Assembly: GCF_048403405.1 (NCBI RefSeq)
Contig: NZ_CP183133.1
Length of the DNA stretch: 51,502 nt
Reading direction: 5' to 3' (one strand)
From: Escherichia coli
GTDB taxonomy: Bacteria > Pseudomonadota > Gammaproteobacteria > Enterobacterales > Enterobacteriaceae
In this document: one piece after another, positions 36,182 to 44,075 of the stretch
Numbering within the stretch: position 1 is the stretch's first letter
How the letters are laid out: each line of letters begins with the position of its first letter
Notes under the pieces: model-generated
The model's database searches: none
What the model was told of the DNA's origin: nothing
What the model saw: only the letters and a program-made list of their open reading frames with translations
Program-made: the position numbers and the translations under genes

Positions 36182-36223
36182 AAGCCTGATTGTCCTAATA
36201 AGGACAATCAGGCTTTTTTATTA
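36182..36223 (+). terminator. Intrinsic terminator hairpin in the leader of the amiC-like operon (candidate ANTAR-controlled terminator)
   Basis: AAGCCTGATTGTCC-TAATAA-GGACAATCAGGCTT followed by TTTTTATT; 20 bp upstream of the amiC-like start. Confidence 0.55.
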
Positions 36224-36242
36224 ATGCAGAGAGCAAACATAC

Positions 36243-37370
36243 GTGCAAACTATTGATATTGGAATTTTGCTTTCCACAGAAGGTACCTACAGCCACCTGG
36301 CGAACAGCACACTGCTTGGTGCGCGCCATGCCTTAGAGGAAATCAATGCCGATCCTGCTTATCCTTTTCAGCTGCGGGCCCGACATATCAACCCTGCGGG
36401 TGAACTCGCAGCCTACAGTGAAGCGGTGAGCACCTTTATCGCTCACGGCATCCGCCATATCTTCGGAACCATTACCTCTGCCAGTCGGAAGGAGATTATC
36501 CCGGACCTGGAGCAGCATAACCTGCTGCTGTGGTATGGCTGTCCTTACGAGGGGTTCGAGAGCTGCGAGCAGGTCGTATATCTGGGCGGTTGTCCGAACC
36601 AGACTCTGCTGCCACTCCTGCGGCTGGCGCTGGATATGTTCGGAAATCGCTCCTGGCTGATCGGCTCTAACTACGTCTGGGGCTGGGAAAGCAATCGTAT
36701 CGCCCGTGAGGTAGTGGAAGGTTCCGGCGGTACGGTGGTGGGCGAAAAATATCTGCACCTGAGAAACAGCAACGTGACCGAGTTGATTGAGGCGATTCTC
36801 AGCACAGAGGTAGATTTTGTACTCAATAACCTGGTAGGCGAAACCTCTTATGCGTTTCTGCGCGCACTGGACGAGGCCTGTCTTCGCGATCGGCGGACGT
36901 TAGCGGTGCTCAGCTGTAATTTTACCGAAGCCGAAGTCGCCGAAGTCGCGCCACTAAGGGCGGTACGTTTGCTTTCCTGCGGACCGTTTTTTGAGAGCGT
37001 CGATCTCGATTTTTGCGCGCGGCAGCACCTGCAACATGGCGCACAGCGCATCTCCCACTACTATATCGGCGGCTGGCGGGCAGTAAGGTTGTTTGCCAAT
37101 AGCCTGCGCGAGGCCGGAAACAGCGAGCCGGGTGCGGTGCTGGCGGCACTGCATCGTCAGCACGACGTTGATTCTCCGGGCGCTCGCTCAGTAATGGCTC
37201 GAAACAACCACGCCTGTTTGCCCTGCTACATCGCTGAGTTGCAACAAACTTGCTTTCAGATACTGCATCGCGAACCGCTGCCGGTTATGCCCGATCCCTA
37301 TCTCTCCGCGACCGAGCTACGTGAAAGCCGAACGGTTGCAGCCAGACCTGCTCTGAGGATTGTTAAATGA
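36243..37370 (+). CDS. AmiC-like periplasmic-binding-fold ligand sensor (negative regulator partner of the ANTAR protein)
   Basis: GTG start; translation …LLWYGCPYEGFESCEQVVYLGGCPNQTLLPL…IGSNYVWGWESNRIAR… parallels P. aeruginosa AmiC as I recall it. Confidence 0.7.
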   Translation: MQTIDIGILLSTEGTYSHLANSTLLGARHALEEINADPAYPFQLRARHINPAGELAAYSEAVSTFIAHGIRHIFGTITSASRKEIIPDLEQHNLLLWYGCPYEGFESCEQVVYLGGCPNQTLLPLLRLALDMFGNRSWLIGSNYVWGWESNRIAREVVEGSGGTVVGEKYLHLRNSNVTELIEAILSTEVDFVLNNLVGETSYAFLRALDEACLRDRRTLAVLSCNFTEAEVAEVAPLRAVRLLSCGPFFESVDLDFCARQHLQHGAQRISHYYIGGWRAVRLFANSLREAGNSEPGAVLAALHRQHDVDSPGARSVMARNNHACLPCYIAELQQTCFQILHREPLPVMPDPYLSATELRESRTVAARPALRIVK

Positions 37371-37960
37371 AAACGCTGCTGTCCCCGGATTTAGATGCTC
37401 AGCCGCTCCTGCTGGTAGACTGTGAAGCAAGGAGTCGCGAAGCGCTGGAAAAAAACCTGACGCGGATGGGTATCCGCTGGCATCACCTGACCGGAGATGA
37501 GGCTTTACCTCCTCTCACCCCCTGTGCAGTACTGGTGGAACTGGAGGCATTCGCCAGCCCGCTAACCCTGAGCCAGATCAATCTGGCCGGAATACCGGTG
37601 ATCGCGCTGACCTCACATGAGGGACTTTACCAGGTACAGCGCGCGCTGGAGTTAGGGGCAACAGCGCTCCTTACCAAGCCTATTACACAGCGAGCCATCT
37701 ATACCACCCTGATGATGGCAGTGGGGCTGCGTCAGCAGTTGCATGACATTCAACAGCAACAGATGCTACTGCGCCAGCGTCTGGCAGCAATGCCGCAGAT
37801 TACCCAAGCTCTGGCGGCCCAGATGCAAGCGGAAAGTATTGATGAACAACAGGCATGGGTTCGCCTGCGCTCGGAATCAATGTGTACGAACCAGTCGGTG
37901 GCACAGGTGGCGCAGAAGTGGCTGCTACGAATGTCGTCCGGCAAGCGGGGAGCACAATGA
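37367..37960 (+). CDS. AmiR-like ANTAR-domain transcription antiterminator
   Basis: N-terminal pseudo-receiver; C-terminal ANTAR-like segment …ITQALAAQMQAESIDEQQAWVRLRSESMCTNQSVAQVAQKWL…; stop overlaps the next start (ATGA). Confidence 0.65.
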   Translation: MKTLLSPDLDAQPLLLVDCEARSREALEKNLTRMGIRWHHLTGDEALPPLTPCAVLVELEAFASPLTLSQINLAGIPVIALTSHEGLYQVQRALELGATALLTKPITQRAIYTTLMMAVGLRQQLHDIQQQQMLLRQRLAAMPQITQALAAQMQAESIDEQQAWVRLRSESMCTNQSVAQVAQKWLLRMSSGKRGAQ

Positions 37961-41342: not shown

Positions 41343-41386
41343 TTTGATGGCGCCGGGACGGCGCCGCTGCTTAAAGGAGAGTCAGG

Positions 41387-42334
41387 ATGTGCCAAAATTG
41401 TCTGGTGAAGACCATTCATCATGCTCAACATCATTTCGGCTGGGATAACAGCCTGAGCCCGGTCCTGCACGTAGCTTCCGGCAGCCAACTGGAGTTTCAC
41501 TGCCTGGATGCGGCTAACGGCTGGTTCAACGCCGGTTCTACCGCAGCGGATATCCCAACGCTGCCGTTTGATAAGCTCAACCCGGTCAGTGGCCCGGTCT
41601 ATGTGGAAGGCGCTCAGCCGGGCGATGCGCTAAAGGTGACGCTGGAATCCTTTCGTCCCAGCGGCTTTGGCTGGACTGCGAATATCCCGGGCTTCGGCCT
41701 GCTGGCCGATCAGTTTTCTGATCCGGCGCTGACGCTGTGGCAATATGACCGCCAGGGCTTAACCCCCTGCGCCTTTGGCCGATATGGCCGCGTACCGCTG
41801 AAACCCTTCGCCGGTACCCTCGGCGTCGCTCCCGCTGCCGCGGGCCATCATTCGGTGGTGCCGCCGCGCCGCGTGGGCGGCAATCTGGATATTCGCGATC
41901 TGGCCGCTGGCTGCACATTATGGCTACCGGTGGAAGTAGAAGGCGCGTTGTTTTCTATTGGTGACACCCACGCCGCGCAGGGCGATGGTGAAGTCTGCGG
42001 CACGGCGATTGAAAGCGCGATGGACGTGGTGGTGAAGCTGGAAGTGGTTAAAGATATGCCGCTGAAAACGCCGCGTTTCGCCACCCCTGGCCCAGTGACC
42101 CAACATCTGGATCGGCACGGCTACAGCGCCTTCACCGGCATTGGCCCTGACCTGATGACCGCCGCCCGCGACGCGGTAAGCTATACCATCGATGCGCTGT
42201 GCCGCGAACAAGGGATGTCGGCGGAAGAGGCCTATATGCTCTGCTCCGTGTGCGGCGATCTGCGCATCAGCGAAATCGTCGATCGGCCTAACTGGGTGGT
42301 GTCGTTCTATTTTCCCAACAGCGTGTTTAATTAG
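41387..42334 (+). CDS. Acetamidase/formamidase-family amidohydrolase
   Basis: 315 aa; …GGNLDIRDL…GDTHAAQGDGEVCGTAIE… is typical of the FmdA/AmdA family. Confidence 0.75.
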   Translation: MCQNCLVKTIHHAQHHFGWDNSLSPVLHVASGSQLEFHCLDAANGWFNAGSTAADIPTLPFDKLNPVSGPVYVEGAQPGDALKVTLESFRPSGFGWTANIPGFGLLADQFSDPALTLWQYDRQGLTPCAFGRYGRVPLKPFAGTLGVAPAAAGHHSVVPPRRVGGNLDIRDLAAGCTLWLPVEVEGALFSIGDTHAAQGDGEVCGTAIESAMDVVVKLEVVKDMPLKTPRFATPGPVTQHLDRHGYSAFTGIGPDLMTAARDAVSYTIDALCREQGMSAEEAYMLCSVCGDLRISEIVDRPNWVVSFYFPNSVFN

Positions 42335-42341
42335 GAGCGTT

Positions 42342-44075
42342 ATGTCAGCAGTCCTATTTCCGGCGCCGCTGCTCTCGGTCGAGCGCCTGTCGATCCAGTT
42401 TGGTACACAGCGGGTGGTGGATGACGTCAGCTTTGCGCTCTGGCCGGGAAAAACTCTGTGCATTGCCGGCGAGTCGGGCAGCGGTAAATCGCTGACTTCG
42501 CTGGCGATCATGGGTTTGCTTCCGGAGGAGGCACAGATTCCAGGCGGCGCGATTATTTTTGATAACCAGGATTTGCTCAGCCTGCCGGAGCGGCAAATGC
42601 AGTTGCTGCGCGGCAAGTCGGTTGCCATGATTTTTCAGGAACCGATGACCTCGCTCAATCCGCTGATGACGGTGGGCCAGCAGCTGGAAGAGACGCTGCA
42701 ACGCCACGAAGTGCTGGGCCGCCGTGAACGGCGCAGCCGGGTCAGCACGATGCTGGACGCGGTCAAAATCAGTCATGTGGAGAAGCGCCTGCAACAGTAT
42801 CCGCACGAGCTTTCCGGCGGTATGCGCCAGCGGGTGATGATCGCCATGGCAATGCTGTGCCAGCCACAGGTGCTGATTGCCGATGAGCCGACCACGGCCC
42901 TCGACGTCACTATTCAGGCGCAGATCCTCGAGTTGATGCGCGAACTGCAGCAGGCGTTTTCCACCAGCCTGCTGTTGATCACCCACGATATGGGAGTGGT
43001 GGCAGAAATGGCCGATGATGTGCTGGTCATGAGTCACGGCAAAATCATGGAGCAGGCTCCGGCAAAAACGCTGTTTACCTCGCCGCAGGCGGCTTATACC
43101 CGCCAGCTGTTGCAGGCGGTACCGGTGCTGGGCCAGGCGCCCGCGCTGGCGCCGGTCGAGGCGACGCGACCGTTGCTCAGCGTCCGCGACCTCAGCGTGC
43201 GCTTTCCGGTGCGCGGCGACGGCCTGCGCGTGCGTCGCGAAGTCCATGCCGTCGATGGCGTCAGCTTCGATCTTTTCCCCGGCGAGACGTTGGGCATCGT
43301 CGGTGAAAGCGGCTGCGGTAAATCGACGACGGCAAAAGCTCTGATGAATATGGTGCCATTTAGCGGCAGCGCGCAGCTTAACGGACAGGAGCTGCACGGC
43401 CTGAAGGACGAGGCGTTAAGAGCGGTACGCCGCGATTTGCAGATGGTGTTTCAGGATCCCTGGGCGGCGCTCAATCCGCGCAAAACTATTTTCGACCTGG
43501 TTGGGGAGCCGCTGCTGATTCATGAGCAGATGCCCGCAGTACAGCGCACGGAGCGGGTGGCGCAGCTATTGCAGCAGGTCGGCCTGCCAGCGGAAGCGAT
43601 GCGGCGTTATCCGCACCAGTTTTCCGGCGGCCAGCGCCAGCGCATTTGCATTGCCCGCGCGCTGGCGCTGAACCCGAAAGTGATCATCGCCGATGAATCG
43701 GTTTCCGCGCTGGATGTTTCAGTACAGGCGCAGGTGCTGACGCTGCTGGAAGATTTGCGTCAGCGCTATCGGCTCAGCTATCTGTTTATTTCCCATGATA
43801 TGGCGGTGGTGGAGCGCATCTGCCACCGGGTAGCGGTGATGTTTGGCGGCCAGCTCGTGGAGATCGGCCCACGAGATCGAGTGTTGCACCATCCGCAGCA
43901 TCCTTATACTCAGCACTTGCTCAGCGCCGTTCCTATACCTGACGTTCAGCAAAGACGGCAACCCCGAGCCACCAGCGCAATGCCGATAAGACCAGAACCG
44001 ATCAAACCCATCGGCTATCAGAGAGTACCGCAGCGCTTTACCGATTTTGGCGACGGGCACCTCGTCGCCTGCTGA
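42342..44075 (+). CDS. Fused tandem ABC transporter ATP-binding protein (DppD-DppF / GsiA-like)
   Basis: Two Walker A motifs ([20 protein letters not shown]) and two signature motifs ([16 protein letters not shown]); start at MSAVLF preceded by AGGAG. Confidence 0.85.

Follow-up and report, generated by a model that had tools for sequence, protein, structure and literature searches.

The 51,502-nucleotide stretch of Escherichia coli DNA analyzed here (contig NZ_CP183133.1; hereafter “the window”) carries at 36243–44075 seven genes for an AmiC-like sensor, an AmiR-like ANTAR antiterminator, the four proteins of an ATP-binding cassette (ABC) transporter and an FmdA_AmdA-family amidase. The locus raises two questions: which compound does this operon serve, and how is its expression controlled? 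Sequence comparison suggests that the operon most likely takes up L-amino acid amides and hydrolyzes them to amino acid and ammonia. The complete model, in which such a scavenging operon is transcribed from a sigma-54/NtrC promoter and is additionally controlled by ANTAR-dependent antitermination at a leader terminator, seems to us rather likely, with clear room for doubt.

Gene content and predicted substrate

Seven tightly coupled genes on the + strand appear both in the list of open reading frames and in the RefSeq record of a plasmid of identical sequence:

36243–37370, + strand: AmiC-like ligand sensor, cytoplasmic (375 aa, GTG start; Peripla_BP_5, E 1e-76)
37367–37960, + strand: AmiR-like antiterminator with pseudo-receiver, coiled coil and ANTAR domain (197 aa; ATGA overlap with the sensor gene)
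37957–38805, + strand: ABC permease of the DppC/OppC/NikC type by NCBIfam (282 aa; ATGA overlap with the regulator gene)
38805–39725, + strand: ABC permease of the DppB/OppB/NikB type by NCBIfam (306 aa; TAATG overlap with the preceding permease gene)
39738–41342, + strand: SBP_bac_5 periplasmic binding protein with a signal peptide, predicted L-amino acid amide binder
41387–42334, + strand: FmdA_AmdA-family amidase, predicted L-amino acid amidase (315 aa; Pfam E 5e-36)
42342–44075, + strand: fused double ABC ATPase of the DppD-DppF type by NCBIfam (577 aa)

An initial annotation of this DNA had described a seven-gene operon of this order with ATGA overlaps. The reading frames, the RefSeq annotation, the domain matches and the junctions all agree with it; the last three intergenic gaps are 12, 44, and 7 nt, as read from the junction sequences. 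Its assignments of the amidase to FmdA_AmdA and of the other products to a fused double ATPase, two permeases and a substrate-binding protein are likewise supported by Pfam and NCBIfam, respectively. Orthologs of the ATPase gene are on record in Pfam with two ABC_tran domains and oligo_HPY. The four transporter proteins fall in the Dpp/Opp/Nik/Gsi importer group, and every equivalog score is well under its NCBIfam cut-off. For the DppC/OppC/NikC-type permease, all equivalog scores being below the cut-offs, NCBIfam gives no specificity.

Smith et al. (bioRxiv 10.1101/2024.02.22.581678) described the MeAmi operon of Mesorhizobium sp. AP09 and defined 610 operons of exactly such architecture. The binding protein MeAmi_SBP was solved with L-serinamide (PDB 8UPI). 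It binds glycinamide (50 µM), L-alaninamide (1.5 µM) and L-tyrosinamide (0.19 µM). Acetamide, glutathione, octopine, the free amino acids and a set of about 100 di- and tripeptides gave no binding (same preprint). Its ligand contacts are Y32, W34, M408, W410, I411, D413, and W435. The window binding protein aligns to 8UPI with E 2.5e-253 and 70% identity over 510 ungapped residues, and all seven of these residues are identical in it. L-amino acid amides, rather than formamide or acetamide, are therefore the probable substrate, because a 70%-identical ortholog binds them and the seven ligand residues are kept. The operon family itself has already been described in 2024, and the substrate class is known by proxy.

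The amidase scores 121.5 bits in the NCBIfam formamidase equivalog NF045496, where the cut-off is 500, and only its C-terminal half aligns. Its nearest structures are uncharacterised “acetamidases” of about 300 aa (2II1, 5UBU, 2F4L, 3TKK), and its Mesorhizobium operon counterparts, 314 aa long, share about 70% identity with it. The L-amidase LamA of Ochrobactrum anthropi is reportedly 314 aa long, a length that fits the enzymes of this operon family (314–315 aa). For the enzyme, the predicted substrate comes from operon association only. For Ochrobactrum anthropi, PMC7431475, citing Sonke 2005, mentions an amino acid amidase with L-selectivity “from the formamidase family”. A 73%-identical homolog of the window amidase occurs in Burkholderia vietnamiensis, clustered there with genes for urea carboxylase, an allophanate-hydrolase-like amidase and a different ABC transporter. 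This cluster includes neither the ANTAR pair nor a Dpp-type transporter.

The ANTAR domain that the initial annotation placed in 37367–37960 is present (E 1.7e-7) together with AmiR_N (E 3.2e-4). The receiver profile is matched only in its C-terminal third, and the best PDB match of the regulator is AmiR (1QO0_D, E 5.8e-7). Among solved structures, the sensor is best matched by AmiC (1PEA/1QO0, E 2.7e-38). Its N-terminus, MQTIDIGILLSTEG, has no hydrophobic leader and no signal peptide. An alignment to AmiC shows that S85, Y104, P107, and Y150, which we take to be acetamide-binding residues of AmiC, are kept in the sensor. The neighbours P105 and T106, of which the latter presumably limits ligand size, are Gly and Cys; the pocket might thereby be enlarged for an amino acid amide. 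In the known system, AmiR is sequestered by AmiC and released by amide (PMC12591593), and an AlphaFold model of the Mesorhizobium sensor–regulator pair resembles 1QO0 (bioRxiv 10.1101/2024.02.22.581678).

The initial annotation called the substrate unknown and pointed to formamide, acetamide or urea-like amides. A module for short-chain amides, like the ami operon of Pseudomonas aeruginosa or the fmd system of Methylophilus, would agree with the Pfam family of the enzyme, with an AmiC/UrtA-like sensor that keeps the four AmiC residues named above (the roles of which we presume), and with the close amidase homolog found beside urea carboxylase and allophanate hydrolase in Burkholderia. However, the transporter is of the Dpp type and not of the Urt/Fmd type, the ortholog of the binding protein does not bind acetamide and needs the alpha-amino group through D413, which the window protein has, and the amidase reaches 121 bits against the 500-bit formamidase cut-off. 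We find this explanation unlikely; a formamide, urea or other short-chain amide function is disfavoured for the operon overall and less so for the intracellular sensor or the enzyme. The automatic annotations “GsiA/B/C/D” and the best NCBIfam similarities, to the Gsi, Dpp, Opp, and Nik families, would rather suit an importer of glutathione, peptides or nickel with an accessory amidase. Yet the equivalog scores are far below the cut-offs (GsiB 251 bits of 594, GsiA 647 of 1077, DppA 236 of 1005, GsiC 244 of 463, GsiD 215 of 484), and none of the approximately 100 peptides, glutathione or octopine is bound by MeAmi_SBP. We regard this importer as highly improbable. L-amino acid amides thus stay our preferred substrate class.

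Promoter and leader RNA

The region upstream of the sensor gene includes the following elements:

36014–36030, + strand: NtrC-like upstream activator site 1, TGCACCATAACTGAGCA (10/12 to TGCACC-N5-GGTGCA; centre at about -105)
36034–36050, + strand: NtrC-like upstream activator site 2, CGCATCCCATTGGTGCA (10/12 match; centre at about -85, 20 bp from site 1)
36071–36083, − strand: exact consensus of the integration host factor (IHF), AATCAATGGATTA, between the activator sites and the promoter
36101–36116, + strand: sigma-54-type promoter TGGCATGAATTTTTCA, with -24 TGGCAT and -12 TTTCA (predicted start about 36127)
36130–36155, + strand: P1, branched leader element with outer stem CAAG(C)/(G)CUUG, variable hairpin 36135–36146 and junction U-A-A-G
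36173–36188, + strand: P2, candidate antiterminator hairpin CAGGU-AAUGAA-GCCUG with hexaloop 36178–36183 (A1/G4)
36181–36219, + strand: intrinsic leader terminator with a 16-bp perfect stem (36181–36216), loop AAUA and U6

To compare loci, we traced ANTAR-protein homologs (47–88% identity) to their contigs. We collected 25 distinct leaders from Enterobacterales and pseudomonads, using seven distinct loci found by protein homology and a search with the P2 17-mer CAGGTAAYGAAGCCTGA. The 17-mer was scanned in 100,044 genomes and matched at least 80 loci, where by our own estimate about 70 chance matches are expected. Among the matches listed, about 25 (in about 21 distinct genomes) have the full layout, directly upstream of the same operon where the sequence suffices. 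The other matches have no promoter, P1 or terminator and were rejected as chance. In all 25 leaders the promoter, P1, P2, and the terminator follow in the same order.

The motif TGGCAY-N5-TTYC stands at the same place in 25 of 25 gamma-proteobacterial leaders and has a single exact match within the window. Its GG-to-C spacing is that of sigma-54 promoters, and the Paraburkholderia promoter is canonical (TGGCATTAAATTTGCT, -12 TTGC). Of 21 loci, 17 have NtrC-like sites matching at least 9/12 in the 220 nt ahead of the promoter; the frequency is about 1.5 per locus vs 0.18 per random 220-nt segment. The enrichment of these sites is approximately 8-fold and refers to consensus match only. Site 2 has a counterpart in the Enterobacter, Pantoea, and Erwinia loci. 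The exact IHF consensus occurs in the window copy only (one of 21 loci), and we do not use it as evidence. The promoter and terminator scan found no sigma-70-like promoter on the + strand upstream of the operon. From these data we infer that a nitrogen-limitation-dependent promoter of the sigma-54/NtrC type probably drives the operon, with candidate activator sites and a predicted start; the precedent, nasF, is taken from PMC12591593. The initial annotation began the operon at 36182. Its gene content stands, but the upstream promoter region (36014–36116) was missed, and the unit would begin about 170 bp earlier.

The terminator is the top terminator match in a 9-kb scan (-26.2 kcal/mol), and the leader fold has z = -5.3 relative to shuffles. 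The initial annotation correctly reported a terminator upstream of the first gene. The distance of 20 bp given there has to be corrected: the T-run ends 23 nt ahead of the GTG start. An AmiC/AmiR-like pair accompanied by a leader terminator is the placement expected for ANTAR control, as had been suggested. The doubt expressed about the terminator loop was also justified, since the hexaloop AAUGAA (A1/G4) is located on a separate hairpin, P2.

According to the dual-hexaloop definition of Ramesh et al. 2012 (PMC3369931), an ANTAR target has two hairpins with A1/G4 hexaloops, and the second of them, with no fewer than 3 bp in its stem, has its 3' arm in common with the terminator. P2 has the stem, the A1/G4 hexaloop and the terminator-overlapping 3' arm of the second hairpin of this definition. 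Eight nucleotides, 36181–36188, belong both to P2 and to the 5' arm of the terminator, so that the 3' arm of P2 is the base of that arm. In every one of the 25 leaders, P2 is the sole canonical A1/G4 hexaloop hairpin, and it always overlaps the terminator 5' arm. Among the seven protein-homology loci, it is invariant except for loop position 3 (AAYGAA). In the Mesorhizobium study, [quoted passage not shown] (bioRxiv 10.1101/2024.02.22.581678). Folding of the leader and a search for the dual-hairpin ANTAR motif, both proposed in the initial annotation, returned P2 with its regular hexaloop and no second canonical hexaloop hairpin. The place of the latter is taken by P1, a conserved branched stem with an almost invariant UAAG junction. 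An Rfam scan of 35500–44600 with E up to 10 gave noise only, with no ANTAR-target family, and no further copies of the P2 motif with up to three mismatches were found in the window.

RNAalifold applied to the 25 leaders recovers P1 and the terminator. In P1, the outer pair changes from C-G to U-A or U-G, an A-U pair is inserted in two leaders, and the base of the inner stem is GC, UA, AU, CG, or GU. Of the cells in the leader structure, 98.3% are paired, and changes on both sides occur in 33 vs 9.3 in shuffles; none of 500 shuffles reaches 33. If the registers are slid, the share of paired cells drops to 21–53%. In the upper stem of the terminator, four pairs change on both sides with 99.5% of cells paired, and the part common to P2 is fixed. 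Termination would be the default, because P2 has -5.1 kcal/mol vs -26.2 kcal/mol for the terminator. P2 is predicted to fold in the nascent RNA ahead of the emergence of the terminator 3' arm. With P2 held, the fold prediction leaves an 8-bp upper terminator stem, which is set apart from the U-tract.

The 3' half of P1, UAAGCCUUG (36147–36155), and the stretch from the P2 loop to its 3' arm, GAAGCCUGA (36181–36189), are near-repeats; the similarity is absent in Vibrio. Either of them could pair with the terminator 3' arm AGGCUU, and in the fold predicted with P2 forced, it is the P1 repeat that does so. We consider both two similar protein-binding sites and an alternative pairing.

Other lineages have different loops at the P2 place. 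The hairpins are AGGC-ACCGAA-GCCU in Paraburkholderia, GGGU-AAUUGC-GCCC in Vibrio and GGGC-AGUUUC-GCCC in eight leaders of Rhizobiaceae and Phyllobacterium, and each overlaps the terminator. One pair of the stem changes from A-U to G-C and another from U-G to C-G. The alpha-proteobacterial loops without G4 agree with the failure of the preprint to find the canonical motif in Mesorhizobium.

The alpha-proteobacterial leaders (plasmids of Rhizobium, Sinorhizobium, Ensifer, and Phyllobacterium) have a TTGACA-N17-TATTTT promoter followed by three hairpins, none of which has an A1/G4 loop. The first is GCCU-GCGGAUU-AGGC, covarying with CAUGCUC-UCAGAUU-GAGCAUG in Ensifer; the second is GACU-UCGAU-AGUC or GACC-UCGAU-GGUC. 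The third is GGGC-AGUUUC-GCCC, and its 3' arm begins the terminator CCCCAUGAYGCC...GGCGUCRUGGGGUUUUU. The leader of Vibrio sp. TH_r3 keeps the P1 outer stem as UAAG/CUUA, which encloses about 95 nt and not a short hairpin, and has G at position 5, not 4, of the P2 loop.

We tentatively suggest, giving the idea somewhat less than an even chance, that the ANTAR regulators of this family stand outside the rule of two A1/G4 hexaloops. They would recognize a single terminator-overlapping hexaloop hairpin, and its loop would have evolved in step with the regulator (Enterobacterales and pseudomonads, AAYGAA; Paraburkholderia, ACCGAA; Vibrio, AAUUGC; Rhizobiaceae, AGUUUC). The gamma- and beta-proteobacterial leaders would add the branched recruitment element CAAG-hairpin-UAAG-CUUG in place of P1. 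If true, such a non-canonical rule would explain the failed published search for targets, and the loop variants would form a natural series for ANTAR–RNA specificity.

Predicted mechanism and alternative explanations

All our conclusions on regulation come from sequence analysis, and the antitermination steps are modeled on AmiC/AmiR, NasR, and EutV. The SBP_bac_5 protein would capture L-amino acid amides, as its characterised 70%-identical ortholog does, and the Dpp-like ABC importer would bring them into the cell. There, as the composition of the operon suggests, the FmdA_AmdA amidase would convert them to L-amino acid and ammonia. As a first layer of control, NtrC bound at the two upstream sites would activate the sigma-54-type promoter (start about 36127) under nitrogen limitation; this is suggested by the conserved sequence. 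As a second layer, the 116-nt leader would fold by default into the very stable terminator, and most transcripts would end at 36219. By analogy with AmiC/AmiR, the AmiC-like sensor would keep the AmiR-like ANTAR dimer inactive until an amide ligand on the sensor frees it. The freed dimer would then bind the P2 hexaloop hairpin in the nascent leader and probably also the branched P1, for recruitment. With GCCUG held in P2, the lower 8 bp of the terminator would be lost, the rest of the stem would stay apart from the U-tract, and read-through would follow. Induction is expected to be self-reinforcing because both regulator genes are the first behind the terminator; it would rely on basal read-through.

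Several points weigh against this model. The P2 sequence itself was used to find 18 of the 25 leaders, so that P2 is invariant among them by construction; the independent cases are the window and the seven protein-derived loci. In the gamma-proteobacterial set P2 is invariant and hence does not covary. The cross-lineage comparison (seven sequences) has one covarying pair with weak statistics, the covariation score being reached in 16 of 500 shuffles; we do not claim P2 as proven by covariation. An exhaustive search of the 25 leaders found no conserved second A..G.. hexaloop hairpin in the P1 position, which leaves one half of the dual-hexaloop definition. The P2-like loops of Vibrio (AAUUGC) and alpha-proteobacteria (AGUUUC) have no G4. 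The main weakness of the promoter call is the -12 dinucleotide, TC in Enterobacterales and pseudomonads instead of the consensus GC. On the side of the substrate, the urea carboxylase and allophanate hydrolase context in Burkholderia vietnamiensis means that the enzyme family may accept other small amides. Similarly, the retention in the sensor of residues that presumably bind small amides means that the intracellular inducer may differ from the transported substrate. For the window copy we infer the transcription start, NtrC/RpoN dependence, AmiR binding, the sensor ligand and the amidase substrate alike. A literature search found no expression or regulation data on the operon in Klebsiella or Pseudomonas.

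Two other accounts of the control region have to be considered. The 36181–36219 hairpin could be an ordinary terminator or insulator that came from the neighbouring DNA, an upstream gene or an insertion sequence (IS) junction, with the operon controlled at initiation only. An IS3-like remnant does end about 150 bp upstream, near 35975, and so long and perfect a stem is unusual in an attenuator. But in at least 25 loci, with upstream genes of differing identity and orientation, the terminator stands between a conserved promoter and the first gene. Covariation is seen in its upper stem, whereas the segment common to P2 does not vary, and the annotated plasmid gene upstream lies on the other strand and is directed away from the operon. 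A stray terminator therefore appears very improbable to us. Alternatively, antitermination is real and the promoter does not depend on NtrC and sigma-54: transcription would start from a weak sigma-70 promoter or with another enhancer-binding protein, and TGGCAY-N5-TTYC would be conserved for another cause. We think this rather unlikely, though worth keeping in mind, given that TC replaces the -12 GC in the 25 leaders, that the alpha-proteobacterial versions use a clear TTGACA-N17-TATTTT promoter, that four of 21 loci have no NtrC-like site of at least 9/12, and that the IHF site is not conserved. It is opposed by the lack of a sigma-70-like promoter on the + strand upstream, by the exact sigma-54 GG-to-C spacing, preserved between Enterobacterales and Paraburkholderia, the latter having a canonical -12 element, and by the approximately 8-fold enrichment of NtrC-type sites. 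Our preferred reading is still a sigma-54/NtrC promoter combined with a leader terminator under ANTAR control.

Plasmid setting and comparison with known systems

The location on a plasmid, assumed in the initial annotation, is confirmed by 100% identity of the region to many Klebsiella IncFIB/IncFII plasmids. The whole region is present in about 730–750 plasmid records; the carriers are mainly conjugative plasmids of Klebsiella, with some of Enterobacter, Raoultella, and Escherichia. The same seven genes in the same order and with unrelated flanks occur in Enterobacter, Pantoea, Affinibrenneria, Sodalis, a genome labelled Martelella alba, Pseudomonas and a metagenome-assembled genome. This order is also found in Stutzerimonas, Paraburkholderia, Vibrio, and Rhizobiaceae; the Rhizobium and Phyllobacterium copies are on plasmids. 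The module is thus self-contained, as initially proposed, recurring in unrelated chromosomal contexts, and the region is a complete, mobile copy of a MeAmi-type operon. Between the Klebsiella and Pseudomonas copies the regulators diverge much faster (48–62% identity) than the transporter and the amidase (71–89%), and the P2 RNA is unchanged.

As 35900–35975 resembles IS3-family ends known elsewhere, we place the start of the native DNA upstream of the operon at about 35976. The IS3-like end stops about 40 bp ahead of the first NtrC-like site, so the control region has only just been kept. The iron-dicitrate operon fecIRABCDE, also encoded on the minus strand, occupies about 27900–34688, further upstream. 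The debris downstream (44314–44624 and about 45986–46954) includes an IS5 transposase and two creatininase-family gene fragments. The fragments were considered as members of the module and rejected, since they are missing from all chromosomal copies. One more structured element lies within the operon:

41349–41365, + strand: GC-rich hairpin GGCGCC-GGGAC-GGCGCC without a U-run, 3' of the binding-protein gene

All nine loci compared (the window and eight others) have a stable GC-rich hairpin, lacking a U-run, just after the binding-protein gene, although the sequences are unrelated. It may be an intercistronic mRNA stabiliser that would raise the output of the binding protein relative to the downstream genes. 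At the 3' end of the operon no clear terminator was found. The hairpin ACCGGCGG-AUUU-CCGCCGGU (44092–44111) begins 17 nt past the ATPase stop; it has no U-run on the + strand and an A-run ahead of it, and fits a terminator of a minus-strand transcript better than a terminator of the amide operon.

New here relative to the published work are the presence of the family on a very common clinical Klebsiella plasmid backbone, a concrete, sequence-derived model of the control region, where no target had been identified, and the similarity of this region to the two-layer design of nasF. The database labels (glutathione or peptide transporter and “formamidase”) are misleading, and amide scavenging induced by nitrogen starvation, if correct, changes the reading of a common accessory region. 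The model names exact nucleotides (A36178, G36181, the P1 junction, the terminator arms) and predicts NtrC/RpoN dependence, which makes the open question testable. The loop variants of the lineages are material for studies of ANTAR–RNA specificity.

In gene content and order the operon is identical to MeAmi of Mesorhizobium sp. AP09, with a 70%-identical binding protein that keeps all ligand residues and an amidase about 70% identical to its Mesorhizobium counterparts. The differences are in the carrier, clinical Klebsiella IncF plasmids vs soil alpha-proteobacteria, and in the AmiC-like regulators, which are only about 39% identical. In contrast to the Rhizobiaceae copies with their sigma-70-type promoter and AGUUUC loop, the window copy has a sigma-54/NtrC-type promoter, the branched P1 and the canonical AAYGAA hexaloop. 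LamA of Ochrobactrum anthropi offers a parallel for the enzyme: PMC7431475 assigns it to the acetamidase/formamidase family and describes it as hydrolyzing amino acid amides with L-selectivity.

With amiEBCRS of P. aeruginosa the operon shares a cytoplasmic AmiC-type sensor, an AmiR-type ANTAR antiterminator, an intrinsic terminator in the leader and regulators encoded behind it. It differs in having an FmdA_AmdA enzyme instead of the nitrilase-superfamily AmiE and a full Dpp-type ABC importer instead of AmiB/AmiS; the regulators are its first genes and not the last, the promoter type is different, and the proteins are distant (E 1e-38 and 1e-7). The E. faecalis (Enterococcus faecalis) EutV target, where hexaloop binding precludes the terminator (PMC3369931), is similar to P2 in its stem of at least 3 bp, its A1/G4 hexaloop and a 3' arm common with the terminator. 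Unlike that target, the leader described here has no second canonical hexaloop, its regulator is not phosphorylated, and the linker between P1 and P2 is variable in length (Enterobacterales, 17 nt; pseudomonads, about 35 nt). The nasF leader of Klebsiella oxytoca combines an NtrC/sigma-54 promoter with NasR antitermination (PMC12591593). The predicted logic of the window operon has the same two layers: a nitrogen-limitation promoter with NtrC sites, and then a terminator overridden by a ligand-activated ANTAR protein at an overlapping hexaloop hairpin. Unlike nasF, it would use a separate AmiC-like sensor instead of a NIT domain fused to ANTAR, its regulator genes lie inside the controlled operon, and in place of a simple hexaloop hairpin its P1 has a branched form.

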